A stretch of DNA of 64,000 nt. Source: Candidatus Omnitrophota bacterium (GTDB lineage Bacteria > Omnitrophota > Gorgyraeia > JAFGHF01). This document shows, piece after piece, positions 27,101-54,567 of this stretch. The notes under the pieces are model-generated. The model did no database searches. It was given only the letters and a program-made list of their open reading frames with translations, and was not told the DNA's origin. The stretch is taken from positions 46,630 through 110,629 of the forward strand of contig JBHPFV010000001.1 in NCBI GenBank assembly GCA_042571705.1. The letters run 5' to 3'. Made by a program: the position numbers and the translations under genes. Each line of letters begins with the position of its first letter. Position 1 is the stretch's first letter.

Positions 27101-30100
27101 CCAGGCCATCAACCCAATTCCACTTTTTATGCTGACCTTTATCGCGGGGGATCTCTCCCCGCCATTAGCATCGGCAAGTGTTACGTTTACAGTTTTAACC
27201 CTTCTGGCAGTTTTTGTAACGTTACTTTATTCCCGCCAAATCCTTCAAATCATCCAAAAAATCATCCAGTCCAACCCGCGGCGGCACCGAAAAGACATCC
27301 GCGGCCGGACAATTGCGCTATTGTTGTTATTGCCGGCGCTGATAGCGATGTCACTAACTTTAGTAGCCGGCGCCATTTTCTTGCATTGGTCCAGGGTCGG
27401 AGGCGTGCTTAAGCCCCTGGAGCGGATCGGCTTTGTAAGCGGTGAGCAATGTAAGGTCACGATCTGGAAATTTAAAACCATGTTAGATGAACCAGGGCCT
27501 GGATTTGCTCGGTCAAAAGATCCTCGGATCAACACTTTGTTTGGAAGAGTAATACGGAAATTAGGCTTAGATGAAATCCCTCAAATCATACAGGTTCTTT
27601 TGGGACAAATAGCCCTGATTGGCATTCGCGCAAAAAGTGACGATTGTGAAGATGATGGCCGTTTTTCCGACTGGGTGGAACAATGCAGGAAGAGTAAAGC
27701 CAATACAGCTATGTTTGCCATAGCCAGGAAGCTGCCATTTGGTCCGATACTGCACAATAATGTTAAGACCCATGAAGACCTCTACGAGTTGCAATTCGAT
27801 ATAGAAGCCCTGCAAAAATTTCCGCATTCGAACGCCATCTATGTGATCTGGAGGCATTTGCTCTACGCCCCCATTCATTTCTCATATGCAGTGCACTACA
27901 AATTGACCAGCCCAAAAGCATCGAAAAGTGAAAGAAATAAGAGTGCCCTGACCCTGCGAAGCACCTACGATACATTCAGTTGGATTCCGTGGAAGAGATT
28001 TATTGAGATTGTGGTGGCGCCGTCCTGGGAACTATTTAAGACCTTCAGGCGTGATTATTTTAGCCGGCACGAATTTAACGAAGATGAGCAGATAGCTATG
28101 ATGCAAAGACGCCTGCGGCTACAGGGTATTCAAGCAATACAGGAGATGACAATTTTCGGATTGGTCTTTGGTTTGTTGGGGGCTGCGACCGCCTCCTGCT
28201 TACTTTGGCCTTCCGTTGCACCCTGGATAAAAGTATTTGCAACATTAGCACTTTCTTTAGTCACTGCCGCTTTGTTCAACATCATCACCCACATGATACA
28301 TAATATTCGTTATCCTCGGGCAGTGTTGACAACTAGAGAAAAGCACTCAGGCCACTTTATTGCTAAACTGATAGTTAGCGATGAAGATATTCGTAGAGTA
28401 GGCAATGAATTAGCAGCGGTTTATGAAAAGGCAAGCCCGGACTACCTTTCACGAATCTTTCCGGCATTGCTTAGCAAGGTACAAGACATTGAGCGTAGAG
28501 AAGAATGGATTAGCCAGCTTAAGGCAGCGGATAACGATTTCAGGAAACTATTATTTATTATGAGAAAAAGACATCCAACTAAATCATTAGCAGCGCTGAT
28601 CCGTAGTTTATCAGGGCTTGTGCAGGGCATGAAAGATATAAAAATGCTTCCTGTTTGCAAAGAGTTAATGAGTGCTTTTGTTGCCAATAGGCCAAAAGGA
28701 GATTTATGCTCGTTCATTAATTGGCCTCTTAGTAAGTTAGTACGGGAAATAAAGGACCCGGAGTTGTTTCTGGCGAAGGTTTTCTATGTTCCGGTAAAAT
28801 TGGGTTTATGGAGGGAGGGAACGAACCGGAGAGCCTTGGATAGGGAAGCAAAAGAAGGTCGAATAGTCAAGATAGGGCGTAAGTATTGGTTTCCTATTAA
28901 AAATCCGTTGAGACCTTGGAATATTATTCACAACCGAACTTTAATATTTTCCGGGCCCAAGCGCCAGTTTGTATATAAAGGCTCAGGCCACTCAGTAATG
29001 GCCACACCTTTTTCTTTAGATAATGATAGGAAACTAGGGATTATGTCCAGTTTTCGAAAAGGTAAAAACATACAACTTTTAACAGGTGGTCTTAGTCAGA
29101 GTGATTCCTCTATGGATGTAGCTATATTATTAAGAGCGGTATATGAGCGCTTAAGAAAAAGAAAAGATCCGGTATTCCAAATGGCTCGAAAGTATGGTGC
29201 TAAAATAGATATGTTTTTAAACCCTATTGTCGTGGTAACTTTAGAAGCCTTGCCAGTAATATTAATGCAGGAAGAGTCAACGTTGCCCAGTGAGACTAAA
29301 AAGCTGCTTACATACTCTATTGCTGATGAATCAATCCCTGAGTCTATAGCATTACCTCAGAGAGTGAAATTAATTCGTACGAAAAAATTTCTTGATTTTA
29401 TTAACATACCCGAGGTTCAAAATGGAAAACCAGTAGAAGAAAGAGATCCGGTAGAATATGTATATAGCGTTCCGGTTAATTTAAGAATGGAGGAAATGGG
29501 TTGCATAAAAGACATTGACCCCATGTTTAGGCATTATGGGTACAAAGTAGAGTATAAGAAAAATGGCTCTGTCGAAGATGTGCCTGCAAGAGGTAGCGGA
29601 GATATCCGGGATGGATATGGAATAAGGTTCAAAAAAGATTATGCTATTGAAAAAGTGTTTAGGAATGGTAAAGAGGTAAACTTTAAACGGGCAGCCGATG
29701 AGGTAGTATTTTCCTTTGCTGCCCGCTGCGCTTTGTTTATCCATATATTGCATGATGAGCTTAATGCTCGCGCGCATAGCGAAGATGGAGGAATATTTAG
29801 GCAGCATAATTGTAACCCGATCACCTTCTTTGACTATGACACAATAAGATACAACTTAAACAGTCTACAAAGAAGAGAAGCAGACTTTAAAGATGTAAGT
29901 GATGCTAAAGACCAGATTATAACCTTGGCCAAAAATTTAGGTGTGCATAAAGACCGCGCCATAGAAGTGTTTAATGAAGTACTAACAGCTGGATCAAAAA
30001 AAGCTAAAAAACCAACAGAACCACATACTAGAGACAGGTTATCAAACCAATCGCAACTGCGTTCCCAATCCGTCAATCTATCCGCCTTTTGGTTTGGTGG

Positions 30101-33100
30101 CTTGGGGATGGGGATGATTGATGCGGTAGAGGTTTTTTCATTTTGCGTTACAGTCCTCAAGGTTATAGGGATTGTGCTGTTACAGGTTTTTGTTGTGGGT
30201 CTCCTTATGTTCTACTTGGTTGTTCCCATAATATTTTTGATTATTGTAAAACGGGATAGAGCGCGATCAGCCAAGCTTAGAGCGAAAAAAGGCCGAGCAC
30301 AAAATGGGTATCCGAAAGTAAAGGGATTCAACGTTGAACACGCCAAAGAAAGTTTGCCTTATGAGAAACTAACTACTCTCGATGAGTATAAAGGAATTAC
30401 GTTTGATGGCAGGGAATTATTTGGTTTTAATTTGCGCCCCAAAGCCTACAGTCTAAATACCGTTTTAACTCATACCTGGTTAATGTTGCGAAAACCTGGG
30501 TTTTTTGTATCGAGGCACGCATTATATGGAGCTATATTACAATCTGCAGAAAAGCATGAGCAGCTTTCGATAGAAGTAGCCAGCAAACTTGCTCAGCCTG
30601 CTTGTTTGTATAAAGTGGGTGGGCAGGTCCGCTTGGTCTTTGATCAAGATTTTATCGAGAGCACAATAAAGTTTTACCACATTAGGCGTGGCTGGAAGAA
30701 CCCTATCGAGACTTCTTTTAGAGAAAAAATACAAGCCTGGCGAATGCGCAAGATAGACCGCGATAGCATATTATGGCCGTTAGTTCAGGTATTAAGTCAT
30801 GAGTTTTGTCATACAAGAAGTTTTGGAGAAAAACACCAAGAGCTGCGGGAAGAAATCAGGTGTGTGGTCAGAGATTCTGAGTTGGTGAGATACGTTTTGT
30901 TTAATGAAAAGAGAAGACGATTCAGGAAAGACGTTGACAAATATAGGAAACTGCTCAAGGATCGTTTCGGTTGTGATTCCTACAACGACTTCTTGTACAG
31001 CCTTGCCGAGGAGGCAGAAAAAGAGATCGGCGCAAAAATTAAAACTTATGTTGATTCTTATTACGATGAATTTAAATTTGTCCCCGGAGTAAAGCCCTTC
31101 CCGGCAGAAGGAAACCATGCACCGTGGTATGTACCGGAAAGATATTCACTAAGAATGGGAAAACGCCGTACTTTAATTCCGGTTTATAGCGAGGACGATT
31201 ATATTGCTAGTGCTATGCGCGTACCTCTTTTATACGAAAATGTTATTAAATATTATAGAGCAGTTTCCCCTTTAAGCGTGTTTCCATATTTGGATTGCCT
31301 TGATGGAAAATGGGAGTTTAATTTTGATCATCCTTTAATAGGCGCCCTAAGGACATTAATTAGGCGAGGGGAAGAGCCTTTAATTTGCGTAGATGCGGGT
31401 GGAGGCTATAGCCTGGCCATGCGGCAGGCCAACAAGATATTTGGATCAGAAATTGACACTTATGTTGTTGACCCTGTCGATTGGCGGGAGGAGCTAAGGC
31501 AGAATCAAAAGATCTTGGCAAGACTACTGGGCTCAGAGCACGGAGACATTCTGTTAGAACAATATGAGCCGACATTTAAAATCGAGCCGATGGAAGAAGC
31601 TAGGCTGCCAAAAGGCGTAAAATTCATTACAGCGATAGATTCCCTGAAATATTGTCGCGACCCATTAAAGGCGATTCAGAATTTATACAACCAGTTGGAG
31701 GTGGGGGGCTTTTTAATCTTTAATATAGGTAGCTCAATACACAAAAGCATTATGATTCAAATTGCGGCTTCAGACAGACCAAAGGAATTCTTGCCTCTGT
31801 TCAGTAACGAAATTAGCAAATTTACTAAGAATCCTCAGTATTGGGAAAGAGCCTGGAAGGTGTTTGTTCCCCTTGGTCCTGGTAGCTATAAAGAAGGAGT
31901 AATGGTAGTTGCCTATAAACAGAAAGACGAGGTATTGCAATTTAACGCTGAACTTGCTAAAGACGGAGCTCATCAACTGATAGCTGGGCTTGCCCTAACT
32001 TTTTATGTGCGGAAGGATCAGCAAGCCCCACTACTACAGTTCTCTTTGAGAAATCGTAGCGGAAACTGTTCTCGAGACGGCACAGCCCTATCCGCCACAT
32101 GGTTTGTTGGCTTGGGGATGGGCAATATTGGTATCTTGGGTTTTATTGGTTTAGTATTGTTTATCTATGCGCTGGTTGTAATCTTGCTCAAGCCGGCCAG
32201 GGAAAAGAAGTTATCTACAAGAGCCCAGAGGCGCCGCTCCAAAAGGCAGAATTTCTCTACCAGAAGAAGAATAAATAAATCTATAGCCTATTTGCTGGCG
32301 ACAGCGGGCATAGCCGCATTGATTGGCGACTTATTTGGCGTTGAGCCGATGTCCAATGACAGTTTTGACATTATCTTTGAGCGCCACCGCAAGAAAGATG
32401 ATTTTGCCAATCACAAAAAATACCTTAGCAGACGAATCGCATCCGCAAAGAAGGCAGACAAGAATGTCAAATGCATATTGGAATGGTCGGATCCGGAGAT
32501 TAGTACTCCGGAAGGCAGAGGAATTTTAAGTGCTTATAATAGCGGGAATCGCCCTTTGGCGCAGAAGCTCCTTAACAATAACCGAAGCAGCGCAGAATTA
32601 TATTTTAATCAAGTCATAGAAGGGCGGGAGCCAATAGAAGAGCTGATAGCACAGCTTAAAGGAACAGATGGCGGCGAATTTAAGATTGAACTGATCAAGT
32701 TCTTGAAGAGTAATAAAGTGGGAGTGGTTTTGGAAAAGCTGAGCCTGGAATCCTGGAAGGAAGATATTCTCAGCTGGGTTAAAGAAGAGCAGGCTCTTCA
32801 GGCATATACAGTTAACAATCTTGATTTATTCAATGAATTAGCTGCTTTGGTAGTTGAGCATAAAAGAAAATCTATAAGCTTGCGCGATTCTGATTTAAGA
32901 ACTCAGGTAAAGCGGCTGATGCGCAACAAAGATGTTTATCTTTTCGGTTTTAGAGGAATTTCTCATACCGGTACAGAAAAAGGGCTGTTGAATGAGCAGT
33001 TTACTGTAACTGCACGCCCCAGCAGGCATAGTAGAGCAGATGAATTGGAGTATGGATTCTGGGAGATTTTACTCAAAGGGGCCTTAAACAAAACTTTTGC

Positions 33101-36100
33101 CCCTTCAGAAATTGCGGAACTTATGTTTAAACACCCCGCCTGTACTTTACTTTATAGGTATTTTGTTAATCAGCAATCTATGGATAGGGCCAAGGCCACT
33201 GCCATGGCGCGGAAGATTATATATCGAGATACGATCAAAATGGCCCAGCTTTATCAGCTAGCCGAATATCTTTCTGGACTAAGTGATAGAAGCGATCAAA
33301 ACTTAGAACGAGAAACCTACCAGTGGTTCAAACAGCCCGGTTCCGAAGCCAATCGGGAAAATAGGGACAGCGACCGATTTCCGGAAACCCTCTCCGTCTT
33401 TGGGAAGGAAGGGGATGGTTCACCGATTGGCTCTGGCTCAACTTTCCGATTAGATAGGGAGCAGGCCCGACAGTACGAACGGAGAAAGATAGAACGGGCC
33501 GCAACATTTACTAGGGAAATATTAGCAGATGATGAAAATAGAAGAGCAGATGTATGGGAGGCGCATCTCTGTCAAATACATTCGCTTTTGTTGGATTATC
33601 TTCTCAACGTAATTGGAATCGAAACGGATATTGTTGCAATACTTTGGAAACCGCTCAATGAAAATTACGCCCATGTTCATTATTGCGGTAAAACAGCAAC
33701 AGGTGTATACGCCGACGCTTTACCGGAAAGAAACGGTCTTAATTTGGATGTCAAAGATCAGGGTTTAGTTCTTTATCCGGGTGATGATGGATATAGCGAA
33801 TACCTGAAAAGTGAAAAAAGAGCCATGTCACTTTATCTTAGAGATCATTTCCAACGAACACCAAAGGTTGTTTTGTTAGGTAATGGGTATTTCCTAGGGA
33901 AATTCATACAAATAATGACCGCATACAAAGGGCAAATCGTAAAATTTACACTGTCCTGTTTATCTGTAGAAGCGGCGAGTGGAGAAAGTGTTCGTTCTGA
34001 TCGGGCCAATGTCTCAGATAATGCAACCCTATCCGTCTTGGGGCTGGGGGGCTTGGGCCTGATGGGTGGCTGGGATATCGTGGGCTTGGGGATTGGCGTG
34101 GTGCTGTGGAAGCTATTACGAAAATCACCATCAGTTCATAAGCTAATAAAGCCAGCCTGTTTAGTAGGGGTATTAGGCATCGCAGCTATATTACTTATTC
34201 CGGAGCTGATTGCGGCGGCAGGAGAGCTTAAGCCTTTGCTTCCGCTAGGTGGTGTAGGTTTGGCTATGGGGGCAGTGTTGGGGGGAATAAAAGGCACCAA
34301 TGATAAAGGTAGCTGTGTTGCGTGTTATAGCGGAGGAAAAGAAAGTATCCTTGCTATACAACTAGCAGCAAAGCAGGGCCTTATTGTTTCTCATCTCCTA
34401 GAGTGGGGGGTAATCGCCGAGCCTGAAGATCGATCAACCTTAGATGGTAGATGTGCCAGTTTAACCCGAGCACAGGCAGATATCTTAGGGATTCCCCTAA
34501 TACAGAAAAGAGAGCCTAAAGAAATACAAGCACAAGTTTGTCGAACTGTGGTTGAAACACTTTCAGAACAGGGCAATGATATCAGCGGAATAGTTGCCGG
34601 AGATATGCTTCCTAGGGAATTTGATAAGCTGGATACACTTTGCAATGAAACCGGTCTTAAGTTATTTGCGCCATTGAGAGAAAAGACCTCTGAGCAAATC
34701 TGGTCAGAACTTAAAAAGGCCGATATTAAAGCAGTAATTACTAACGGTATTTCTAATTTTATCGGAAGAAATATGATTGGCCGTCAGTTAGACGATTCAA
34801 TTATTGAAGAGTTAAGAAGAAAGAAAGTTGATATTATAGGTAGAAATGGTGAGTATCATACGCTAGTAATTGATTCGCGTTTATTCCCAGAGAAGATTGA
34901 AATAGTAAAAGCAGAAATTGTTAAGGCTAGTATATTTTGGTGGATATGGGATATTCATGAATATAGAAGGGTTCCCAAAAATAGCGACAGACGCCAATCT
35001 CCGGAAACCCTATCCGCCTTTGGATTTGGCGGATTGGGAATGCTGTTGGGCAAAGCGAATTGGATTAATGCTGCTCTGTGGGTTGCGGCGGCTATAGTTA
35101 CTGGCATTATCATTTATGTCGCAAGAAAATCAGAATTGTCTCAACAGGGGCTGGAACTGGAGAAGATAAGAAGTATAACAGAAGATAAAGACTTTTTAGA
35201 GGCTTGTAAGTATTTTAATTCTCAAGTGTTGCCAGCGCCAATTTCACTTGGAGACTATCCCCATACGGACAGCGGCCATTATCGCCTAAGGTGGTTCTTG
35301 ATGAATTATTTATTAATCAATAATGGATACACAGCGTTTTATTTTGAGAAACAGGAACTCCCTTTACTTCGCCATCGGCCTGAGTATCAAAACCCCGCGC
35401 TTTTAGTTGAACTGATAAAGGAACGCAGCGGTCCCAGAATAGACACCTGTAAAACAGATTCTATTTACGCTGGCAAGGATGATTTGGTAGGGGCAGAGGA
35501 AAAATCTGCAGAAAACAAGATCAAGGTTTTGGTAATAAGCGATGAAACTATATCCTGGCTGATAGAGAGGCTAAAGAAGATAGATGATTCTCTATGTGTT
35601 GAGAGTGCATCTGCTGATATGGTAAGTGCCCTGCAAAAGGTGAAGCGGGAAAGGAGCGGATTTGACATAGTAATTATTGGCGGGAGTACGCCAAAGATGA
35701 ATATCCTGCAGTTTGTGAAAGAAGTAAGGGAAAAATCTGCTGATACATTCTTTATTGTTCAGAGCTCTTTAGCTGTAGGAAGATTGGAACAAAGCCTGGT
35801 AGAAATAATCGATATGTTTGTCAGCCGGACTGACTTTACAACAGAGCATATTATGGGCCCTGTGGTTGAGCAGGCCAGGCAGGTGGCCGTACTCACCAGC
35901 AATTGCCTGGTTGAGGCAATTGCCTTAAGAGATAACAGATCTAAGAGGGAATTGGCTAAGAGATTTGCCAAGTATTTTACTTCTGAAAAAATAAAGAATA
36001 AAGAAATATCATTTGAGAAGGCTTTAATGATTATGAACAAGGAAAATATTTCTGATAGTGATCTATATGTTCAGAGGCGAGTAGAGCATCTCTGGCACGT

Positions 36101-39100
36101 AGTCTTTGGGGCCAAGGGAGGCTATCAGGAGTTCTCAAAAGTAACAGAAAGATTACGGAAAGAGCCTGAAGAATTAAAACAGGCCAAGCTGGGCAACGAT
36201 AGGCAGAGCAGCCAATTACCAGGGATAATTAACTTGGCGCTGGCAGAAGATATAGCTCAGGGTGATCCTACCAGCGAACTGGTCTTTTCAGAAACAGCAA
36301 CTGCTAATGCTAAAATCATAACCAGGGAAGCTGGCATAGTCTGTGGTTTGGAGGCAGCAAGATTAGCTTTTCAAGCTGTAGATGACAAGATTAGCTTTCA
36401 GACTAAGCTCAGAGACGGGCAGGAAGTTGAGCAAGGCCAAATTCTTATTGAGTTAGAAGGCAATGCGCGAAATATTTTGATGGCGGAAAGAGCGGCTTTG
36501 AACTTTTTAGGCCGTCTTTCCGGGATTGCCAGTTTGACCAGCAAGCTTGTCAATAGAATTAAACCATCGAAGGTCAAAATTATGCCTTATGAAACGACCT
36601 GTGGGCTGAAGGAGCTCGAAGAAGGTGCTGTTCTTTGCGGAGGTGGGTTTATCCGTCCGGGGAAAGAGGTGCCGGTTGTAACTATGGATAATCTGCGCAA
36701 AATTGTTGCCAGCGGCGTAGCTAAGATTGCAGTGCGAGAGTTGACTCTTTCAACAAAAATACTAGACGTGGCTTTAGATTTGTGCGTATCCGAACCAAAT
36801 GATCGAAGCCGGGTCTGGACGGGTGATAATGAATCAGGCCAAGCCACATTTGCCTTTGCCTTTTTTGGCTTGGGCCTGCCCGCCTTCGGCGAGACTTTGC
36901 CGGTCCTGGGGATGGTTGCGGCGCCGTTGGTGTGGGTGGCGGTTGTGGCTGTGCTGGCTGTGGCGGCAGACTTTGAGCCTTTACTTGGGATGAGCGGTGT
37001 AGGTCTGGCTATGGGGGTAGTGGCAGGATTAGGTGACAGATGGGGAGAATCGAAAGTTTTTCATGCTAAAACTGTAATAAAGCGCCTCTTAAATGCAGAC
37101 CGAAATATAAGAACACCGGCTGCCTTGTTTGAAAGTCTAAGGACTGAGGCCCCCGATGTATTGGCGGCAATACCACCAGTTCGCGAAGATGGAACATTTA
37201 ACTATACGGTTCAAGAAAGGCGAGAAAAATTGCAAAACCTGGTATCTCTGGCTGCCGAGGAATTACGGGTAAGAATTAATTTAATTGTGGCGAGTTACAA
37301 AAGAAATATTGCTGAAGCAGCTTCTGGGGAAGAATTGAAGAATCTTTATAGGAATTTAGGTAAAGTCCTACATCCTGACTTTAATCTTGGTAATGAAAAA
37401 ATGGCCATTGCTGCCTTCATAGAGCTTGCAAGTGCTGTGGAGAGACGCTTAGCAAGCGACTTACCAGAATTTACTAGTGATATTAGAGCTTTAGCGAAGA
37501 AATGGTCAAAATTCATTACTTTTCTTGGTTGTGGTGAAAGCATGCCTTTAATGGAGGGACCAATTGGAGAGCTCTTAAAGAGCGAGGGAAGTGTAGTAGA
37601 AGAAGCAAAAAGGCTTTCTTCTTTAGCTGTGGGTAATATTGCCTATATAAGCTTACCGAAACAGGAAAATTCAAAAAGCCTTTCATTAGTGGTCTTACCA
37701 AATATGATGATTAGGCGAATACTCGTCTTAGGCCAGTTGACTGCCGAAACCCCATTGCCATATATCAGCATAGAGCCTCCTGTAATCGGATCTACGTTAA
37801 CTACTGAGGGCATGCCGACCGATAGCTGGTATATTCCCTACTTCTCCGTGGCAAGTATGCTTAATCCGCCTGTGGAACATATCGCATTGGAGGATCTCAG
37901 GCAACACAGGATAAAGGCTGTAAAAGAGCCTCTTTATACTGTAAGAGGCACTTTTGGCACTCCTTTCGTAGCCAGAATTGGTGAGCTGTTTGAATGTAAT
38001 TACGAAGACGGCGGTTTCACCACTTTAAAAAATAAGAAAACACTTACCAGTGTAACGGTAATAAGCTTGAAAAGAGGAAATTTGTACAGGCGCCTTACGC
38101 TTTTTCCTTACGGTGAGGGCTCAATTGATTCGTATCATTTAATGCTTCATCCTAGTGAAAGAAAAGTCCAAGGTCAAATAATTAATGTAAGTGTGAAGAC
38201 AGTACAAAAAGGTGTAGAGGGGGGATATATCAAGATTAGAAGAAAAGTCTTGCCTTCCAAACAAACCCACATAGTTGTAGAGGGCGGCAAAACCAATCTG
38301 AGAAGTGTACCCGGCTTAGATGACGAAGCCATCAAAACAGACAATAGTGCCCTCTCTGTCTTCGGGTTGGGGGGCTTGGGCCTGTTTGGTGGCTGGTGGG
38401 GTGTTGTTGGTGTGGCGGCTGTGGTTGTGGGTGTGCTAATTATGGATGCTCAACGTGAAAGGATGGTTTCAACCTTCTTCTCAAGGGTGGCAATACGTTT
38501 CTCTAAGGCTTGGAAGTCTTGCTTGCGCAGCATATCTGATAAGGCTTTGATGGCTAGAGAGTTGTCCGCCACCATCTGGGCAAGTTTTTCTATGTCGGTT
38601 TTTACATTCTTTAAATCAGCGCGAATACCAGCTATTTCTCGCTGTATTTCTTTATTGGACACTTTAATTATGGTAATATCTTCAAAATTTCGTCCTACTT
38701 GTTCCCGAGTACCCCTAACTTCTTCTTTGAGTTCTCCTACATCTGCTCGGACGAATTCTAAGCCTTCACCAAAAGTACGAAATTGCGACGACAAATCCTC
38801 TAATATTACACCAAACTCTCGATCTTTACTGAGATCTTTACCTTTCTTGGCCACGCTATTCTCCTTATTTGAATTTGGAAATTATGCAACACAAATCATA
38901 TCACCAAGCCCTGTCTCTGTCAAGGGTAAATTTGGAAGTCAGGATACCCTATCCGTCTTAGGGCTGGGGGGCTTGGGGTTGATGAGTGTTGACTGGGTTA
39001 GTGCTGGTTTGTTTTTTGGGGTAATGTTAGTGTGGTGGCGGAGAACTAATAGTGAGTCTTTACCGGTAGGCTTCGCGGCGATGACGGACACGAAACACGA

Positions 39101-42100
39101 TAACTTCTTTAGACGTATCGCTAATCGTATAAATAACGCGATAACTGCCCTTACGCAGTCGATATTGGTTGGCCGTGCCGGTAAGTTTCTTACAATTTCC
39201 AGGCCGGGGATTTCCAGCAAGAGAACGAATGGCAGTTATAATAGCAGGAATTTGTTTCTTGGGCAGGGAGCGAATCTGTTTTTGCGCAGAGGCAATGAGG
39301 AAGAGCTTATACAACCTTCTCTCCCTGGAGTTGCTCAGCGAATTTATCAAAGGAAATCCGCTTTTCCTTACGGTGAGACTTTATGTATTGGCTGTCGGCC
39401 AAATCCTCCACCAGTTCAAGGAGCTTCCGGTAGTCCTTTATACTCAGTATCACCGCAGAGCACTTTCCGTGTTCGTCTACTACAAACTCTTCGTGCAATT
39501 TTATCATCGTTTACCCCCAATTTATCCTCTGATTCCAACAACTCTACCGATAAATATAACCCATTTTCCCATAGAAGTCAAGCTGTAAGAGGCCAAACCG
39601 CTGTGGTGGGGTGGTTGGGGTTGGTGGGGGTGGTTGTGCTGGCTGTGGCGGCGGACTTTGAGCCTTTGCTGGGGGTAGGCGGTGTAGGCGCAGGTCTGTT
39701 TTTGGCCGCAATGATGATGGGTGGGATATATGACGCAAGCAGAAAAAAAGAGTCTGCGCATAATATTAATGCAAAAAAACAATTGATAACAGCTGACCAG
39801 ATAAAAATGACCGGATATAACCCTACTAATCAGCGAGATAGAGTAATAATTACTTATCAGAATCAACCAAAATTTCCTGTCATAGCAGAAAGCAATGTAT
39901 TGGCGATGTTTGAGTTCAAGAGATTGGCAGAGTTTGTGGATATAGAAAAGATACAGGTTGCAATAAGCACGGGTTTGCCAAGCCTTGGGTTCTGTATAAA
40001 ATCTACTGATCCTACGCTTCCGGGATATAACGAAAAAGCACAAGAAGCACTGCTAGTTAGAATAAATGTTTTTATCGATTACTGTTATCCGAATGACTTT
40101 AAAGCCTGGGAAAATGGTGAAATAATTAATGCTGCTAGGCTGACCGGGTTACACACAAACCCTGCCATAAAAGGTGAGGTTTTTCTCCATAATCTATTTG
40201 AAAATCATTTGAAACCGATGATCAAGAATGCGGGATTTGAATGCATTAATGCCTGGGCATTTGAGATTCCTGGTAAAACGTGGCTTCATCGTCACGGTTT
40301 TGTAGATATGAAAGTTGGTGATGGTTCAACTATATTTACTTTAAATTTACAAGATTACAGTCCTGTTGGTACGCAGTGGCATGGTTGGCGGGGGAAAGCA
40401 GGAGAATCAGAACCGGCCCAAGAATCTAATATCTTGCTACCTGATGAGTTGAGATGGTCTTCATACAGACTGCCTGATTATTTTATAGTAGATAGAATGA
40501 AAGACGATAATGATTTTCGTGAACGAGTATTCAATGAAGGAATTTTGCCTGTAGGGGTAAAAGGAATTATAGATAATCCTGAATTAGCAGATTGGATGAG
40601 GACATTTGACCCGCGAATGGTCGCTAAAATCAAGGCTTTTCTGTATAATTCCTACAAAGATCACAAGCGATTAGAGCTGATTGGAATAAAAGGGACCCAT
40701 CATTGCTCTACTTGCGCTGATGAAATATGGGAAGTAATACCCGGGACTCTATTCCATTGGGCGGCTTGGAATCGAGTTGGTTTAGACCCAGAAAATGGCC
40801 TCGGCAAACGTTTGGCCGATATATATCCTTACATAGAAAACCCGTGGATCAAGGGAATGGGCCAGGTGAAATGCAGAGAATATACTGGTGATATTGTGGA
40901 AGGGTTTTTACAAAAGCTAAAAGCAGAATCTGAACTTATGCCTGTTGTTTTGCAATTATGCGAGACTTCTAATGAAATCGTATTAGACGATTATTGGTAC
41001 CGCGCCAGCATTACAAATGCATTATATGGACTGGGCGACCATCATGAATATGATATTTCTCCTTTCGGATTGTTCTTTATAACAAATCTATCCATCCTGT
41101 TATTTAAAGAAGGCTTAATAACGCAAGAAGATTACAGGAAACTTGAAATAGCGACAACAAGGGTAGAGTTTCCCTATGGCGGTATTGGGCGTTTCTTGCC
41201 GTATAACTTATTTAGAGAGGTATCGGCGTCTAAGGATTTTGATTATAAGCAAGCGGTAAAAAGATTTTTTGAGAGTTGTACTCGCAATGATTATTGTTTA
41301 TCTGACCAATGGTATGCAGATCAGTTGTATGCTGCACTTTCTGCTGCAAAATCTCAAGGTATAAGTGTTGCTGATGATATTTGGCAAGAGTTTTGCAGAA
41401 TGTTTCGTCAAAAAAATAGGGACAGCGAGCAATCTCCGAACTCCCTATCCGCCTTCGGGCTGGGGGGCTTGGAGTTGCCTGTTATCGTGGGCTTGGTGGC
41501 TGTTGGGGCTGTGGCTGTGTTGTGGAAGCTGTTGCGAAAACTGGGAAAAAGTCAAAATCCAAGACCTGGCCCCATCGACGTTAGCTTGCTTCGGCCGATA
41601 GTAATTTTAGCCGGTGTTTTAGCCTATTCTTTTTTCTCTCCGGGAGCAATGGAAGGAATACTTAGTTTTCACTTGTTGATTTGTCTTATAGTGGCGATCA
41701 GCGTAGCACTCGTTTGCTATGTTGGGCACATATTCAACAGGGATAGAAATCTAGAAGGACAAAAATCTCAAGTCAAAAAAGATGGAATCACTCCCGAAGA
41801 GAAAGAGAAAGTTTTTTGGGATATTGTCAAGATACTAGCCGTGTTGTTCTTGATATGGGTTGTTTTCGGACCAGTAAACACTGCCGCAGGCGGGACATTG
41901 GCATTGCCAGCTGCAACCACTACAACTGTGGCACCGGCTGCAGTTCCGTCAACACTGCCGACACTTACGCAAATGCTATTAACTATTTTAGCAATAGCGG
42001 TTGGGGTCTATTGTTTGCTGAGACCCAATCTCAATCGGTTTAAGACTCTCTTAAACAGAAATTTGCTTTGGCCGATAGCATTTTTATTAGTCGGTGCTGG

Positions 42101-45100
42101 TGTTTTAGCAGCATATTTTTTCCTCCCTCCCGAAGCAACAACCCAAGCCATGGCTCAGCTTTTCGGCACAGGAGGCAGCGCAGCAGGAGTTAAGTCCTTA
42201 CTCCCGGCAGGCGGCATGGCTCTGGCCATGGCGGGGGTGACAGGAAGCGCAGGCGCAGGAGAAAGATCTGAACGAGAATTTAAGCAACCTTCAAGGAATC
42301 TTGTTAATAAAGATGGCCCAAAGGCTGGCTTCGGCGCACCGTGGAGAATTGATGTGGCCAATGTGCCTACGCTTGCTTTTACTCAGGTTGCGGCAGCAGA
42401 ACCCGAAGATTCGATGTTTGCATTGAATATCTATCTGCGCTATCTCTCGGTCGCAGCCAAAAAAGAAATTATGAATAGAATTAGGCGTGCACGTAAGTTT
42501 ATTGAGAAGCTAGAGTCAATGTATCCCGATGCATTAACTTTTGTGCTGTTTGGAAGCTATCCTTATGGTTTTATGAATGAGATACCACGCGACATAGATG
42601 TTCACATTACGGAAAGCAAGAACGAAAATATTACGCAGCTAACAAATCTTGCTGACCTTTTTGATAGGTATAGTCGCACGCCGGAAACCGTGAAAGGCGT
42701 AGTTTTTACCGAAAAAGATTTCTTAGGGTCATTATCTCAAAATAACGCAGGTTTGATATTGCCTTACGTTCTAGAGGCATTGACCGGTATTACCGTTAAG
42801 GGGAAATTTTATTACGATGTCAATAATCCACCTTCGCTCAGGTATATTTTCTACCTTTTAGATTTTACTCAAGAAACCATAGATGAATCGATGGAAATAT
42901 TAGATTTGCCTTACTCGAGTGAAAGTCTTCAAGAGTACAGGCATTATAAGGCACACCAAGTGCATAGAGATAAAATTCGCTTTGCTCAAGACACCATAGA
43001 CGCGTTTGAAAGAAGAGAAAAAGGCAGAGCTGCCATGCACATGAGAGCTATAAGACTTGTATGCCAAAGTCAACTTGTTATGAAGTTGATCTGCGATCTA
43101 TATGGAGTAGATAGCACAGAAGTCCTGCCGCCAACATCCAATAACCCTTATATTAACGAACAAGCGATCAAGACATTGAGTACATATATAACAGAAGGTG
43201 CTCCCCATATGTCGTTCATCATGGACGGCGTACATAATACTGACGACTTTACTTTAGTCTATGATGCCTGTCGTCAGCTATGCGAGGCATTAACGAGTTT
43301 GGATGAAAGAGTGGAGAAGTTGCGGCAGCGTACCCAAGACAAAGATCCCGATGCTGCCTCCGGCTCAGACGGTACAGCCCTCTCCATCTTCGGACTTTGT
43401 GGGTTGGGGATGGGTGGTGTGCCTTTACTGGCTGTTGGGGCAGTGGTTGTGCTGTGTTTTAGCCGTATGTTTAGGTCGGGCTTAAACAGGTGGGGTTGGG
43501 GCATTGCAGCTGCATTATTACTTATCCCAGCGCTATTTGGCCAGTCAACAGAGCTGTTTGCGGTCGCAGGAGGTTTTAAGCCTTTGCTTGGCGGGGCAGG
43601 CGGCATGGCTCTGGCTATGGTCGCCATGATGGGTGGGATGACAGACGTTGGCGATGGGTCGCATAAAGATAAAAATAGGTCTGACCCCTTTTCTCCACAA
43701 CCTTCTTCGGAAAAAGCAAAGAAGGTAAAAGAAATTTTTGGTGAAAACGCGATAAAAGACGAGCTCGATTTAAATTATGATTTTCAGCAGCTTGTAGAAG
43801 GACATAGGAGAGAGAGGTTTGAAGAAGGGAACGAAGGTGGGGCGAAAGGGGAAACAAAGTGGTTTCCTTTAAGAATAGCTTTAATGCCGCTTTTTAGATG
43901 TGTAGCCAATTGTCTGTATTGTTTCTTTGGAAATAGCGTACATAAAAAAGACGAGATGTCCATAGAGAATATGGCTCATATATTCGATACCCAAGAATTA
44001 CTTATAAAAAATATTTTCTCACATCTAAGCGGAGGAGAGATTTTCCTGAGGGATGATGTGTTGGAAATGATTGAGAAATTTCCAATCGTTTCATTAGTTA
44101 CTAACGCGGCAACCATGACTTCTTTAGAAAAAGCTAAGGATTCCATTATAGCGTTAAAGAAAGTATATGAAAAAAGAATAGAATCCGGACAGATGGAGAT
44201 TTTAAAGCCAGATAGTTTTGGGCAAGTTGATAGATATCAGAGATCCTGGTTGTGTTATTTATGGATGAGAGAGAAACTAATAGAGTTAACCCGAAATGAG
44301 CCTTTTCATATAGGTATTTCCTTAGATGACATTTGTTTAGCGGAACACTCTATTTCTGTGGGAAAAATAGCAAATTTAATAGTCGCTTGTGTTAATCATT
44401 ATCCTAAATTGGGCCTGGGATTTATAGCAATTGATGGAAAATGGAAAGAAGAAGCATACCCTGCCCTGAAGAAAGAACTTGAGAGGCATGGTTTAGCTTT
44501 AAAATTCAATGAAAAAAATAATAATTTTCTTTTGACAAGGCACGGTGGATTTAGAAAACTAATCAATTTAAAAGAAAATTCTATTGAAAAAGTGGGCGGC
44601 GCTTTTGCTAATTTGTCCGGTGAAAATTTTGGCAAAGCTATTTTACCCAAACAAAGGTCTTATTTTGGATTCTATAAAGATTATTATGGACTAGCTATAA
44701 TTGATTATAGTGGCAACATGAGTATTTCAGACGGTTTCTTGGCTGAGCATGCACCTCTTATATTTGGAAATGTACTTGAGGAAGGCTGGAGTAAAATACT
44801 TAAGAGGGTAGACAAAGATCCACTATTTAGAGCGCTAGTTACCTCAACGCAAAAAATTATTTCAATAGCAAAGGAATATGATCCTGATATTGTAAAAAAT
44901 ATACAAGAGGGCAAGCCCGGTGGGACTATTGCACTATTTTACTGGCTTCTCTCCAACCCCGAGCGAAAACTCTACGTAACCTATCGGCTTCTGCAAGACT
45001 ATTACGAAGAGGGCGTGTTAAAAGGCAAAAATCCGTTCAAGGACCTGGAGCCACATGAGATAAAGGCTTTAGTTGAGAAAGAGGTTGGAGAATTAAGAGA

Positions 45101-48100
45101 TGAATTCAGAGAAAGACCAGGTAAAGCCACAGATGATGGAGGCAGTCACGAATCTCCTGAAACTCTATCCGCCTTTTGGTTTGGTGGGTTGGGACTGATT
45201 GGAGCCGAGCACTGGGTAGTGCTGGCTGTGGGTCTAGGTATTATGTTTGGGGGGACACTTCTCCGATTGGCTCGAGAAACGGTCTCCGATTGGCTGGAGA
45301 ACCGGTCTCCGTTTGGGCTGAGACCTGGTCTTATCAATGTGCGATTAGTAGGCTGTTTGGTATTGGGGATATTAGGCATCGCGGCTCTATGGCTATGGGG
45401 CGGCCCAGGTACAGGGCTGGCTGTGGCGGCGGACTTTGAGCCTTTGCTTGGTGTAGGCGGTGGCGTAAGTTTAGCTATGGCGGGGGTGGGGGTGATTTAT
45501 GCAAGCTTAAATGATAAAGAGGGGCAGATCATAAGTGCTGTTGAGAAATTTTATAATGAACATGGAGAGAATGTTTATAGAAACACTGCAGGAGGAATAG
45601 GGGGGAGATATAAACCATTGCCATCAAAAAAGGCGATGGAAGATTTATGGTTACTGTGTAAACAGTTAAGAATACGAAAAGGAGACAAATTTTATGATTT
45701 TGGATTTGGGGATGGTAGAATTGCTGTTATGATGAGAGCGCTTGGTCTCCAAGCGTATGGCGACGAAATAGATGTTAATTTAGCCAAGAAAGCAAAGGTT
45801 TTATTAGGGAAAAATCTTAAGAAGTATTCATTTTTAAGTAGCCTTGTAAACGAAGACAATGTACATCTACAACACGGTGATTCCTTCAATCGAGATTTAT
45901 CTGAATTTGATATTGTCTTTTTCTATTATACGTTTCCTATTCCAGATTGGACCGGAGGAAATCAAGATTTGGCTAGAGAAGTGTTTAAACAAAGAGTATG
46001 GGCAAAGCTGATTGGCAATATAGACGGAAAAGGCCTTAAGTCTGGGGCACAATTTATTACTTTCTGTCCTCCCGAGAGCAAATATTGGTTAGATGACTTT
46101 GATGAATTTAATGTTATGCATTGTGGTAATTTCGGGATATATGAGCTGAAACCGCAGGTTGGGGATGGAGACTTTGGTGGCTGGATGACTGATCCAATGT
46201 CTGGATTTGTTGGTATGCATCAGGCGGGTTGGCGTAAGAAAGCAGAGGAATCGCAACCGCCCCCAGAAGATATTTATTCTATAGCAAAAATAACCGTACC
46301 GAAAACTGCACATAGGCAAAAAGGAATACACCACAGGCCTTCGCTAGCTCTTGTTGATACTTGTGGAAAAATATATAAGCTATTTTCTGAAAATATTATA
46401 ATTAAATTTTCAAGGGGTGAGGAAAGTAGTGGCGATGAGGCTACTTATCGTCATGGAGGCATTGCAGAGTTTGTTTTTAAAATAGGATCCTCAGGTGGAT
46501 ATACAGGGCCATATATAATTACTATCGAAGGGCCTTTTAAGCAAGACCTGCTTGAAGAGGCAGCCAAGATTCTTGCTACCGTTCTAGGGGACGAAAGATT
46601 TAAATATGGTTTTCATTCAGACCTGCCACTGAGAGAGGAAATAGATGAAAAGATTAGACAACTCAGAACATCCATTGCCAAAAATAGGGGTGACGACCAA
46701 TCTTCAGAAGCCCTATCCGCTTTGGGGCTGGGGGGCTTGGGGTTGATGGGTGGCTGGAATGTTGCTATTTTGGCTGTGGTGACTGTAGTGGTTATGGCTA
46801 TTTTTAGCTTACGGCAGAAACGAAGGGGTGATTATCGTGACAATGAGGTTACTTTAGCCTCAAGAGTAGATATGCGTTTTTCCAGGGCTTGGAGTTCTTG
46901 GCGGTCAACTTTAGTTTTGGCGAGATTATCAATGCTTTGGGTAAGTGTCTCAATTTTAGCGGCCATATTCTGGATTGCCGCTTCTAGAAGGGTAATCTTT
47001 TCGGTATTCTTGCCAACTTGCTCATACGTAGCATCAAGCTTAGAAACCATTTCTTCTTGTCGTTCGCCAAATGCCTTGAATTCACTGCGAAATTGGTCAA
47101 TTAGCGTACCTACTTCCGTGGGGCTAAATTTAGCTTTGGCAGGTTTGCTTGTTCTGATGGGTTTTTTCATGGTGAGGTATATAATAAGCCTGCCGAGCGC
47201 AAAAGTCAAGCGAAAAATAATGCCGCTAACCGTTAAAGGTGAGCTAAATGTACAATTACTTGAAAGGTTGGTTGATCAGGCTGGCAGAAACGCCGGATTT
47301 GTGCTTGATGTAGGGATTATAGCCAGGATTGTTGGCGGAATGAGAGTTCTAAGGTCAGGAAAACGCAAAGATATAGATATTGCTCTTATTTTGCAACATC
47401 CTTTTCAAGGTGGTGAATGCAGCAAGTTTATTGAACAGTTTAAACAAATAGTAGAGAAACATCAAGGTGTAGAGTTAAAGAAAAGAGAAGTGAGTGCAAA
47501 GGAAGGGAGGCATTTTCCGTTTCATTATCTTAAAATTACTTCTTCTTTAGCAGGACAAGTAAAAGAGATAGAAGTTAGGGATATATTTCTTATACTTGAC
47601 TCAAGATTGATTTTATCTGCCCTTGCTCCACCTTCACAGGTTCTATCAGACCAGACGCTCGAATCCCTATCCCATTTATCTTTCAAGAATCTTATTACTT
47701 TAGAATATTATCTTGGTGATTTAGAAATATACACTAAGATGTTGGAAGAATTCAAGAGTAAAGTTCAAGATGGCGGCGATGTGATCGTTGACTTCGATAA
47801 GCATCCTTCTTATGCTGAAAGGGCAAGGACGCATATAGCGGAAGCCAAAAGATTAATGGAATGCAGTGAAAGGGAGTTGGCTCAGGATGAAAAATTTCGT
47901 CAGGTTCATACCCGTTATACCTGTTTTATCTTTAATGTAGAAAAAAGGGTCAGACGTCAATCTCCGAGACCGACGAACTGGCGGGGGCATCAGATGTTAC
48001 CGTCGGGAGTGGTGATGACACAAGAGATGCTGCAGAACAACGGATATGCGCAGGGGTGGCAGCAAGGCAGAGCTGCTCGAGCAGCCAATGCATGGTTTGG

Positions 48101-51100
48101 CTTAGATGGTGCCGATTCTTTTACAGATCCGCTCATACCCAACATAGCCGGTGCGTTTCGGCAGGGGGTGAATCGGGGGAATGAGTCTGAGTCCATTGGA
48201 GAAAGTCAAAATTCAAGACCTGACCCCATTTCTGGTAGAGGGGACGGCAGGAGAGGAAGAAGTGAACCCGTCCCCAATACTACTGCAGACAATAAGGGGA
48301 AATCTTTTCTTGCTTTTTGGAGTGGCGGTAAAGATAGCTACTTTGCCGTTAAGTGGGCATTAGAACAGGAGTTGAGGGTTGCTTATTTATTTAATGTTTG
48401 CTATCGCAAGCCGCCGAATGGCAAATTGATGTCTTTATGCACTCTTCCTGTCGACTTAATATATTTACAGTCCAGAGCTTTGGGTATTCCTTTGATTACA
48501 AGCATTATAAATGTAAATGATATGGCATATCCAGGAGTGGGCTATGTGCAACTTTCTACCAATACTTTAAAGAGGTTTGTTAAGAGTTCAAAGAGTAATG
48601 TCGATGGCATAATTGCCGGAGACATGTTGCAGGACAACAAAGATGAATTAGAAAGAATTTGTGCCAGCTTGGGCATTAAACTTATAATGCCACTTGAACA
48701 TCAAACTCAATCGGAAATCTTATTAGAAGCCGTAAAGTCCGAAAATAGGATAGTTATTTCTTCAGTTCAAAAATCATCTATGGAATTGTCTGAGTTCTTT
48801 AGGGGTGGATTCGACAGGCGTTATATTGATTATTTGAGACGGCATCATAGTGATGTCTTAGGTAGTAACGGCGAATATCATACTATAGTGCTCAAGGGGA
48901 GTAAGTATGTCAATGGCTGGATAGAAATAATAAATGAAACATTTGAGATCCACAGAGATTGGTGGGTACGCAGCTTTAATGAATATCGTTTTGTTCCCAA
49001 AGCGACGAGAGCTGAGGACAAAACACTCAATTCCGCCCAAAAAAATGATTTACCCGATTCTGAAAGTAGTGCCCTATCCGTCTTGGGGCTGGTTGGAGTC
49101 GGATACTGGGTAGTGGCGGCTGTGGCGGCGTTAATTTTTGTCATCATCGCCAAAAGGGACACTTTCCCGTTTGGATCTGGCCCAGCTTCCCGATTGAATC
49201 CAGACCTGGTCCTACCGATAGGGGTGGGGGTTGGGGTGGCGTTGGTCTTCATGGCGCAAGAGGGGGCGCTTATTGGCGGGATGTTCCTGACCGCAATGAT
49301 GGGTGGGATATATGACATTGGTGGGAAAAAAGTGTCTGTTCCTAATTTACTAATGTTAAAACAACGTTTGGATACGCTAGCCACAATTAAAGACAAAAGG
49401 AAAGCCGTAGAATTCGCTCGTAGTTTTGGGTTGGATTTAAGGCCCAGTATTTATGGAATGTTGCATCCGCTTCATATCGGTCATTCAAGGGCAGTCCATC
49501 GGCAGATTTCTGACAATGACGACACAGAAGCTAAAATAGCTGTCGATGGAGCCGGAAGTGTGGACCTGACAACAATTGTACATTGTACCGGAGCGCGTGA
49601 AATTTATAAGATAGATCATCAGAGTACCTACACTATTGAACATTGGCTTGGAAGCTGGGATTCTTTTGGGACTCCAAGAGACCCATTACTGAATCGTTAC
49701 ACTGATCCGTATGCGGGATATAAATTTATCAATGGGTACGGCGAATCTGGAGAATATGGGACCTTTTATAATCTAGCACAATTAGTTGCTGAACTAAAAG
49801 CATTGGGTGTTGAAAGAAGAGATATTGATACAGTAACAGAAACAGTGCAAAATGATGCATGGAAATGGTACGACGATAAAAAGGGCGAGAGGACATTTTT
49901 AAGAGAATTAAAATTTTTGTGGAGTCCAACAAGCAATGAATACGACAAGCAGCCTCACACTGTACATTTTATAAAAGGAGACATTACCGATCCGAGCACC
50001 TATTTAAGCAAGATCGAACATTTAAAAAGTAAAGTTGATTTTTACTACCAAAGAGCAGGATTTTCCGCAGCTCGATATTATGGGAACTATATACCCAAAA
50101 TATTAGAGTTGCTTAAACCCGGAGCTTTTATAATTACAGATGATTATTATTTAAGAGATGACGGAGAAGTCTTGGTAGTAGAACCGGTGGATTTGTCCCT
50201 TGTTTTGCAGGAAAAGAAACTAGATTGTTATAAAGTACCTTTATCGCCTAAAGTTGAGGCCTGGCGGAAAGCTATCTTGAAATTTTTAAAACAGACTATT
50301 GTCAATAGGTTATTGAAAGGCGAAGTTGGATACGGGTGCGACTTAAAAATTTACCAAAGGACTGCAAATATTGGACCAACCCAATCAACCTCTGCCATCT
50401 TTGTTCCCGGCCTGTTCGCCTTTGGCGAAACTATGCCGGTCCTGGGGATGGGTGTGGGGGGCTGGATGGTGCTGGCTGTGGGTCTAGGTATTTTGCTCTG
50501 GAGGGACACCTTCCCGTTTAGATCTGGCCCAGCTTCCCGATTGAATCCGGACCTGGTCCTACCGATAGGGGTGGGGGTTGGGGTGGTGGCGTTGTTCTTG
50601 GTGGCGCCAGAGGGAGGTTTTCTGGGCGGGATGTTCCTGGCCGCAATGATGGGTGGGATTAATGACGTTAGTGGAAAAAAAGAGTCTGTGCCTAATATTT
50701 TGAGTGAATTGCAGGGCATGATTCGACAGGCAGATAGAGAGGATGAATGGGAGTTAATTGTTTCCTGTACCGGGTTAAGAAAAAATATTGTTGCATTTGT
50801 ACTTAAAAGAGAAATTCCACTTCAAGCTGTGCCTTCGGTTGCCCAAGCTATAGCGCGTTGCGGCTTTTCAAAAACAGAAGAAGCCCTGAAATTGGTTAAT
50901 CCAGAAGCCGCGGTTTCAGCTGCTATTGCTATTCAATATGTTGGAAGGCCCAAAGTAAAGCAGCTTATGCGGCGTAATATTCCACAGGAAAAACTCGGTG
51001 CAGTTGCTGATCTGATAAAATATTATGGCCAAAATGCAGAAAGATTATTTAATCCAGCTTACAGAAAAGAAAGTTTTGTTACTGCACATGCATATGAGAC

Positions 51101-54192: not shown

Positions 54193-54210
54193 AATTAGGG
54201 TTGACGGGAG

Positions 54211-54564: not shown

Positions 54565-54567
54565 AAA

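Follow-up and report, generated by a model that had tools for sequence, protein, structure and literature searches.

Two questions have been open for the giant genes of the Omnitrophota, namely by what route such genes become longer and whether their translation gives a single product, and both are raised by a 64,000-nucleotide (nt) stretch of contig JBHPFV010000001.1 from a Candidatus Omnitrophota bacterium (hereafter, the window). The window contains a single giant open reading frame (ORF).

84..52988, plus strand: giant ORF, 17,634 amino acids (aa), GTG start; the only giant ORF of the window

A preliminary description of the interval 35518-46600, which corresponds to residues ~11,812-15,506 of the giant ORF, held that it mixes intact folds with folds that have lost catalytic residues, as a fused gene array would predict. 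Our analysis suggests that this interval probably lies within a genuine giant membrane protein of the Omnitrophota, a mosaic the tiles of which are found in three states. The giant gene would have been extended as whole genes became fused in frame between junction modules, such that each tile would represent roughly one former gene joined in frame to the next by a hydrophobic, Gly-rich junction. Tiles in the first state are probably functional, as predicted from sequence or structural models, and comprise a radical-SAM-like tile (T7), an HPr-like domain, DUF71, and perhaps a J-like segment. Those in the second state would be decayed relics that serve as scaffold or spacer only, and include a NadC-like tile and perhaps a receiver-like segment. 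Tiles in the third state would be pure spacer, produced by antisense read-through of small minus-strand genes that are located within expanded junction loops.

Evidence that bears on capture and decay comes from the NadC-like tile.

36201..36800, plus strand: NadC relic, with a complete N-terminal domain, the first barrel strand, an internal deletion of ~100 aa, and the C-terminal helix kept

The N-terminal domain (QRPTase_N) was detected at full length by Pfam (E 3.8e-20), and the barrel domain (QRPTase_C; PF01729) was matched at profile positions 1-42 of 169 only (21 bits against a cut-off of 23.1). Matches to NadC in the PDB reached 3.7e-24. The closest relatives of the tile are ordinary standalone NadC proteins with 50-55% identity, with the named best matches being from Candidatus Omnitrophica, and colinearity between the tile and NadC extends from ~residue 8 as far as the natural C-terminus of the latter. 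With this level of identity to genuine NadC, the residue register of the tile is not in doubt. The sequence MDTRKTTPG of Omnitrophota NadC reads M-PYETTCG in the tile (YETT at 36588-36599; AVLCGGG at 36627-36647), such that TRKT has Y in place of its R and E in place of its K; in a phmmer alignment the R of TRKT is deleted, the K is likewise replaced by E, and the H of NHR is deleted. The stretch of the barrel from NHR to SGG (~100 aa) is replaced by IRPGKEVPV, and the last helix of NadC is kept (GELTHS in NadC, RELTLS in the tile). Since the C-terminal helix is retained while the NHR-SGG stretch is lost, the barrel has undergone an internal deletion rather than the truncation by a junction that had been proposed. 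The colinearity, the replacement of TRKT, and the loss of NHR that had been noted alongside this proposal are borne out, with the caveat that in one alignment NHR may still have its R. The predicted product of this tile cannot be a working quinolinate phosphoribosyltransferase. Collectively, the span of a whole gene, the closest similarity to NadC of the host, and the loss of catalytic residues fit capture of a whole gene followed by decay, and the tile looks like a nadC of the host lineage itself that was taken in as a complete gene and hollowed out afterwards.

Within the interval, capture is clearest for a ParE/RelB toxin-antitoxin (TA) pair and a coiled-coil gene. These are encoded on the opposite strand and were absent from the preliminary description.

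38450..38854, minus strand: nested antisense gene 1, a 134-aa coiled-coil protein with a GTG start preceded by an AAGGAG Shine-Dalgarno sequence
38895..38923, minus strand: promoter-like site TTGACA-17-TATGAT (11/12, with TG) upstream of nested gene 1
39060..39350, minus strand: nested ParE/RelE-family toxin with a likely TTG start at 39314 (Pfam ParE_toxin E 1.4e-11, 45.2 bits against 23)
39307..39507, minus strand: nested RelB-like antitoxin (Pfam RelB-like E 4.1e-11, 43 bits against 27)
39553-39581, minus strand: promoter-like site TTGACT-17-TATATT upstream of the RelB-like antitoxin
46832..47209, minus strand: second nested antisense gene (gene 2), paralogous to gene 1, with a likely ATG at 47170; it falls just beyond the interval 35518-46600
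47181-47209, minus strand: promoter-like site of nested gene 2

A promoter-like site that agrees with 10-11 of the 12 consensus positions is located upstream of each of the three nested units. In the TA pair the antitoxin comes first, and the RelB stop overlaps the ParE start by 8 nt. The toxin is named RelE/ParE toxin by NCBI, and the product of nested gene 1 is 100% identical to the NCBI entry 'hypothetical protein ACFL2I_08115'. Homologs of the coiled-coil genes, the two paralogous products of which are 125-134 aa in length, are found elsewhere as standalone genes (P0003 and P0004 for gene 1). The ParE/RelB pair and the two coiled-coil genes appear intact.

In the giant frame, tiles T3 (38466-38948) and T4 (39051-39599) and the tile at 46.8-47.2 kb read as Ser/Arg-rich junk, and none of these antisense tiles has a family match in Pfam. 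We evaluated codon usage with a log-odds model that was trained on the genes downstream, together with those tiles that had the best support, and applied to six frames in 351 scan windows of 300 nt. The giant frame was the best coding frame in 340 of these, indicating that the ORF is coding along almost its whole length, and the only sizeable losses of the giant frame were in the same three tiles. The minus strand was the best coding frame across T3 and the tile at 46.8-47.2 kb. Codon usage in T4 was mixed, with the minus frame best in one scan window and another plus-strand frame best in two. The purine fraction of the plus strand is 0.545 across the giant ORF, compared to 0.415-0.48 over the nested genes. 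No introns or ribozymes that could splice out the antisense tiles were identified in the window (Rfam), and no nested genes were evident by eye among the minus-strand open stretches of two other large Omnitrophota ORFs (L001 and L006).

That the giant frame is open across the nested genes is itself informative. Synonymous codons were redrawn with each nested protein and the codon usage of its surroundings held constant; the probabilities that the giant frame would be open across the four genes were 0.107, 0.016, 0.0003, and 0.0047. For an empirical control we took 17 real genes or tiles from the window. Their antisense frames were open in 0-10% of length-matched segments, and the joint chance of openness across the four nested genes, when calculated with the most generous rate for each gene, is ~6e-6 at most. 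Openness is therefore far from what chance would yield, which implies either that only rare stop-free insertions survived or that stops were removed later. By either route, continuity of the giant frame would be under selection, and this in turn is an indirect sign that the giant frame is read through.

A different account is that the ORF is not a biological unit at all, being instead an assembly artefact or a decaying gene or pseudogene array, and that only the minus-strand genes are real in the region 38.4-39.6 kb. The material that bears on this comes from a metagenome-assembled genome (MAG) of a Candidatus Omnitrophota bacterium (GCA_042569555.1), which contains two contigs with 99.4% and 99.8% DNA identity to the window. 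The first of these (JBHPHE010000101.1; 99.4% identical to window positions 36997-39443) lacks 14 nt at 37254-37267, which breaks the giant frame just 5' of the J-like domain, and its listed gene calls comprise minus-strand genes only. The break in frame, these gene calls, the name given to the toxin by NCBI, and the observation that the contigs of the MAG end in or beside junctions would all be expected if the ORF were not a unit. They are to be set against 17,634 stop-free codons with in-frame codon usage almost throughout, against an openness across four antisense genes that has so small an empirical chance, and against the two contigs themselves, which confirm the window sequence locally at 99.4-99.8% identity. 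We therefore regard this account as very improbable.

The tiles are separated by a recurring hydrophobic, Gly-rich junction. Motif A of the junction comprises an acidic/polar pre-motif, the sequence LSxFGLGGLGL, ~17-20 hydrophobic residues, and a basic cluster. Motif B, which often follows A, comprises a second hydrophobic segment that ends in AADFEPLLG and then a Gly-rich stretch. At least 13 copies of motif A were identified between residues 8,481 and 16,800, and the N-terminal half of the protein carries other junction variants.

34977..35144, plus strand: junction A copy, in which an acidic pre-motif and LSAFGFGGLGM lead into a hydrophobic segment and a basic cluster
36852..37040, plus strand: junction in which a variant A motif and a hydrophobic segment precede the B motif AADFEPLLG and a Gly-rich segment
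38319..38468, plus strand: junction A copy LSVFGLGGLGL
38916..39077, plus strand: junction A copy LSVLGLGGLGL
39576..39773, plus strand: B part of a junction, with a hydrophobic segment, AADFEPLLG, and a Gly-rich segment, at which the expanded loop closes
41409..42320, plus strand: junction A copy with about five extra hydrophobic segments, the core of which (~41423-41445) is the identity breakpoint with the second MAG contig
45132..45518, plus strand: junction A+B between T7 and T8
46680..46841, plus strand: junction A copy LSALGLGGLGL

Pairwise DNA identity among junction copies is only 41-72%, indicating that they are not recent duplicates. Over the 11-codon core of the junction, divergence at synonymous sites (pS) is 0.42 and divergence at nonsynonymous sites (pN) is 0.16 (pN/pS ~0.39), and in the four codons 5' of the core the two kinds of sites have diverged equally. 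An excess of pS over pN that is confined to the core and not seen in the preceding codons indicates that the core is constrained at the level of the protein and, judged by this pattern of divergence, is under purifying selection. The motif is also private to the lineage as far as could be detected by profile and pattern searches. A junction profile that was searched against 1.84 billion proteins recovered a fragment from the same organism as its sole match, the junction DNA pattern had no matches in genome contigs and none in metagenome contigs, and the junction peptide pattern had no confirmed matches in metagenomes. Approximately 80 hydrophobic segments were detected in the giant protein with a Kyte-Doolittle scan, and we suggest that the junctions would hold the enzyme tiles at the membrane, by threading or by tethering them.

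Given this layout, the giant protein could alternatively be a polyprotein, with the junctions serving as internal signals for sorting or cleavage and yielding many membrane-anchored pieces from which the relic and antisense tiles are discarded. Such signals would explain why the protein sequence of the core is conserved despite synonymous divergence and why the same arrangement, an acidic pre-motif with a hydrophobic span and a basic cluster, is repeated at least 13 times, and cleavage has been raised as an open question in published work. However, comparison of the junctions to NCBIfam revealed no sorting-signal or other model near its cut-off (LPXTG_anchor E 2.9; no PEP-CTERM or GlyGly-CTERM match), and family scans identified no peptidase, sortase, exosortase, or rhomboid domain in the giant protein or its neighbors. 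A polyprotein is thus considered unlikely. Motifs at ~6.5-8.4 kb that by eye resemble those of CPBP/CAAX proteases (EExxxR, FxxxH, HxxxN) were considered as a possible processor of the junctions and rejected, as no CPBP match was found in Pfam at E <= 10.

The second contig of the MAG (L003; positions 1-4899) is 99.8% identical to window positions 41423-45360 and differs from the window in the tile that comes before. Its first 961 nt encode an upstream tile that is absent from the window and unrelated to it, near-perfect identity begins at a junction core, and both ends of the block that is shared with the window fall in junctions. Such a switch is what either recombination or a paralogous copy at junction cores would produce, and recombination at the core would reshuffle blocks of tiles. 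A structural variant that breaks at the junction core, together with tiles that correspond to whole genes in both orientations, might also be expected of an integron-like cassette array, in which a site-specific recombinase would use the junctions as attC-like sites and the junctions would be translated only incidentally. TA modules are, moreover, typical cargo of chromosomal integrons. However, no consistent single-strand hairpin was predicted for the junction DNA (z-scores of -1.96 to +1.19), family scans revealed no integrase or recombinase gene in the window, and the junction copies are only 41-72% identical in DNA with amino acid conservation that exceeds synonymous conservation. An integron-like array is accordingly extremely improbable.

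Several further observations concern junctions and linkers. At 33357-33422 (~residue 11,092), the pre-motif and LSVFG are kept (ENRDSDRFPETLSVFG) and are followed by polar sequence without a hydrophobic segment; this putative degenerate remnant suggests that junctions can be lost by deletion. In the N-terminal half, a pair of 103-nt sequences of a different junction type (15068-15170 and 18104-18206; translated as LLLPLAWIAAPGLQPATWQLILFTLCLFL) are 98% identical, and an 80-nt repeat (12465-12544 and 18279-18358) is 81% identical. These repeats suggest recent duplication or gene conversion. Two neighboring junctions of a third type, at 49155-49346 and 50502-50696, are 84-91% identical in DNA (translated as RDTFPFGSGPASRLNPDLVLPIGVGVGV...MMGGI.D..GKK.S.). 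A soluble linker motif, (Q/H)(A/G)GWR(K/G)..(E/G)ES(Q/E)P(P/A), is present in three places (40366-40417, 46210-46261, and 52510-52561), with the copy at 46210-46261 located directly 5' of the HPr-like domain. Internal paralogy of the giant protein was judged from a repeat search, and self-BLAST of the protein yielded no off-diagonal matches.

The state of the remaining plus-strand modules determines how far the preliminary description of the interval extends.

34314..34967, plus strand: DUF71/Diphthami_syn_2 tile, copy 1 (Pfam E 8.9e-29, profile positions 3-218 of 219)
35499..35918, plus strand: receiver-like segment (FDIVIIGG at 35661-35684)
37308..37442, plus strand: J-like segment (helix II, HPD, helix III), with HPD at 37371-37379
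39756..41444, plus strand: tile T5, 563 aa, no family match
42321..43379, plus strand: tile T6, a possible nucleotidyltransferase (NTP_transf_2 E 0.0011, 19.7 bits against a cut-off of 21)
43671..45164, plus strand: tile T7, radical-SAM-like (Pfam Radical_SAM E 9e-4, 19.8 bits against a cut-off of 29.5)
46284..46640, plus strand: HPr-like domain (GIHHRPS at 46323-46343)
48309..48977, plus strand: DUF71 tile, copy 2 (Pfam E 1.4e-21, full length)

The motifs quoted in the description are all present at the places claimed, but both DUF71 copies and both kinase-like domains fall outside of the range to which they were assigned. Among the probably functional tiles, T7 carries the sequence CVANCLYC at 43899-43922, and the CxxxCxxC motif is kept in all four of the proteins compared, namely the giant protein and homologs with 38-43% identity from three other Omnitrophota MAGs (L004, L005, and L006). 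No hydrophobic junctions were detected by eye in these homologs, which appear to be soluble. In another Omnitrophota protein (P0001), a methyltransferase-like part directly follows the T7 module, whereas in the giant protein a 110-residue junction intervenes between T7 and T8. In one of the three MAGs (L004; 118-2769), the T7 radical-SAM-like module lies within an ordinary protein of 883 aa, and the downstream ORFs of that locus share their sizes (221, 236, and 322 aa) with those of the L001 locus, which encodes a protein of at least 2,968 aa. The length of the T7-bearing gene thus looks like it varies several-fold between relatives at one conserved locus. A search of the PDB with T6 returned no useful match.

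The HPr-like domain had no Pfam or PDB sequence match, with either a single sequence or a profile as the query. An AlphaFold2 model of the domain was built with three paralogous copies from P0001. The model (predicted local distance difference test score [pLDDT] of 66.6) has a beta-alpha-beta-beta-alpha-beta-alpha order, and its residue 16, which is the first His of GIHHRPS, directly precedes helix 1 (H17-33). The five best Foldseek matches were all HPr (probability up to 1.0; template modeling score 0.45-0.64). An HPr fold that keeps a His, as had been suggested, can thus be assigned with moderate confidence from the model, in the face of the missing sequence match. The J-like segment scored 26.8 bits with Pfam DnaJ (PF00226; profile positions 8-51 of 63), just below the cut-off of 27.8, and its 25 weak PDB matches were without exception J-domains, to which its HPD, lying between helices II and III, aligned in register. 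Retention of HPD was therefore correctly noted and a J-domain is plausible, even though the profile match falls short; recruitment of Hsp70 through this domain is purely speculative.

The modules that were thought to lack catalytic residues form a less uniform group. In the PP-loop of DUF71 copy 1, SGGKES (34329-34346) takes the place of the canonical SGGKDS that is present in copy 2 (48321-48338). It is in register with SGGKDS of PH1257 (PDB 2D13), as the preliminary description would have it, but the change from D to E is, by its chemistry, conservative and is not proof of inactivity. The DUF71 tile is full length and sits between two junctions. The receiver-like segment matched Response_reg (PF00072) at E 0.028 with 15 bits, below the cut-off of 30.2. 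Its best PDB match was CheY (E 0.036), and in this weak alignment D57 is replaced by G and D12 by S, and D13 is kept. The AlphaFold2 model of the segment (pLDDT of 52.9) was too poor to use and its Foldseek matches were meaningless. A Gly does occupy the position of the phospho-acceptor Asp, as claimed, but the identification of the segment as a receiver is weak. The kinase-like modules at ~6.0-8.0 kb had sub-threshold matches only (Bud32 E 0.007, LanKC 0.009, RIO1 0.019, and Pkinase 0.15), and copy 2, the sole copy searched, had no PDB match. Since these matches are sub-threshold, the residue register for HRD and DFG cannot be trusted, and the assignment of two kinase-like domains was not confirmed.

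These mixed results could be taken to mean that all of the modules are functional, highly divergent enzymes with non-canonical sites, and that the missing residues are an artefact of alignment or of expectation. The domains of Omnitrophota giants are reported to be highly divergent, SGGKES is conservative, copy 2 of the kinase-like module may keep Asp residues when examined by eye, and residue register is uncertain in the receiver and kinase alignments because of their weakness, all of which would be in keeping with this interpretation. However, it does not accommodate the NadC-like tile, which is 50-55% identical to genuine NadC and yet is without ~100 barrel residues and the R and K of TRKT, nor the antisense tiles, which have no family match and no plausible fold of their own. 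We consider it quite improbable that every module is functional. What endures of the proposed fused array of intact and degenerate folds is the mosaic itself, the intact-looking T7 and DUF71 copy 2, and the NadC relic; the receiver and kinase-like modules, being sub-threshold, and SGGKES, being conservative, do not contribute to it. The proposal is thus supported in part, most strongly by the NadC relic and by the nested antisense genes that the preliminary description lacks.

Several points weigh against the mosaic of tiles in three states that we favor. We infer translation of the ORF as one chain from sequence only, and the tethering of cytoplasmic enzyme tiles at the membrane from a topology that is derived from hydrophobic segments. 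The receiver, J, nucleotidyltransferase, and kinase-like calls are all sub-threshold. The 14-nt deletion may mean that the ORF is split in some strains, or one of the assemblies may be wrong at this point, and the different upstream tile in L003 could be an assembly chimera at a repeat. A further, more tentative proposal, which we think possible but rather doubtful, is that the locus is an in-frame gene-capture array. In such an array, genes would be taken up in either orientation between private junctions, recombination at the junction cores would keep the frame, and selection would keep the frame open across antisense genes. If so, the locus would provide direct sequence evidence that giant ORFs must be read end to end, and giant ORFs would be places where protein domains die out as well as places where new ones arise.

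With respect to the two questions posed at the outset, the NadC-like tile would provide a dated example of capture by which such genes grow, with the host's own nadC having been taken whole and then gutted. The protein-selected junction module appears to mark the sites at which tiles are joined and exchanged. Avoidance of stops across four antisense genes is hard to explain without selection on read-through of the giant frame. As some domains are relics, lists of Pfam domains overstate the enzymatic repertoire of such giant proteins, and gene callers would be expected to miss either the nested genes or the giant.

The remainder of the giant ORF and its neighborhood were also characterized. Twelve distinct Pfam families were detected in the giant protein above cut-offs and several more below, with none being dominant; these include PIG-L, Pterin_bind, B12-binding together with Radical_SAM, PEMT/ICMT, GH130, Bac_transf, Diphthami_syn_2 (two copies), QRPTase_N, and others. 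The region 3' of the giant ORF encodes three PilZ proteins, two Gfo/Idh/MocA oxidoreductases, a sugar-phosphate isomerase-like triosephosphate isomerase (TIM) barrel protein, two ATP-binding cassette (ABC) sugar permeases, and two mannanases of glycoside hydrolase (GH) family 113.

26600-26950 of the window, in the giant ORF: GH130 beta-1,4-mannooligosaccharide phosphorylase-like tile (E 2.6e-19)
53848-54897 of the window, directly after the giant ORF and a 288-aa ORF: three tandem small PilZ-domain genes

One of the Gfo/Idh/MocA proteins is an exact match to NCBI proteins of Candidatus Omnitrophota bacterium, and the 288-aa ORF, which has no family match, overlaps the giant stop by 8 nt. Just 3' of the giant ORF, an operon at 57839-63279 encodes the two ABC sugar permeases, the two GH113 mannanases, and a mannanase-type binding module. 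By predicted function, the GH130 tile and this downstream sugar operon form a coherent theme of mannan use.

The features described above can be compared to those of known systems. The NadC-like tile shares with NadC (PF02749 and PF01729) the full N-terminal domain and colinearity, and differs from it by the replacement of R and K in TRKT, the deletion in the barrel, and its embedding in a giant protein. Like type II TA systems of the ParE/RelE-RelB kind, the nested pair has the same gene order, an 8-nt overlap, and a promoter-like site upstream; unlike them, the nested operon lies wholly antisense inside a far longer ORF that is open across it. Rickettsia palindromic elements are repeated short modules that are translated in frame between functional parts of proteins. 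The junction module is likewise an in-frame repeat, yet it is hydrophobic, selected at the protein level, lacking a palindrome, and found in one lineage only. With the LPXTG, PEP-CTERM, and GlyGly-CTERM sorting signals the junction shares a layout of motif, hydrophobic span, and basic cluster. Those signals are C-terminal, whereas the junction is internal, is repeated at least 13 times, and matches no model, and no processing enzyme was found nearby.

Giant genes of the Omnitrophota have been described as encoding many transmembrane (TM) helices and many divergent enzyme domains and as having neighbors involved in carbohydrate uptake (bioRxiv 10.1101/2023.11.21.568195; 10.64898/2026.06.07.730766). 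One described class of giants is termed 'multi-enzyme metabolic clusters' or 'Archaeovorin' (West-Roberts et al. 2023, 10.1101/2023.11.21.568195; Nielsen & Lui 2026, 10.64898/2026.06.07.730766), and a SecA_DEAD-like domain is present in most, but not all, giant multi-enzyme proteins of the Omnitrophota. The ORF described here differs from that class in that SecA_DEAD (no Pfam match at E <= 0.01 in the whole giant protein) and the C39 and S8 domains were not found by Pfam. It shares with the Omnitrophota giants the phylum, an ORF of more than 10,000 aa, dozens of hydrophobic helices that occur about every few hundred residues, numerous distinct and divergent Pfam domains (radical SAM, methyltransferase-like, receiver, and sugar enzymes), and adjoining genes for carbohydrate import and glycoside hydrolases. 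The ORF, as predicted, thus fits the described class of giant 'multi-enzyme, many-TM' proteins. A search for terms in both of the preprints on giant genes indicated that loss of catalytic residues, a conserved junction motif, and nested antisense genes are not discussed there. While giant genes of the Omnitrophota are already known, what this locus provides is sequence-level handles on their growth and their read-through.

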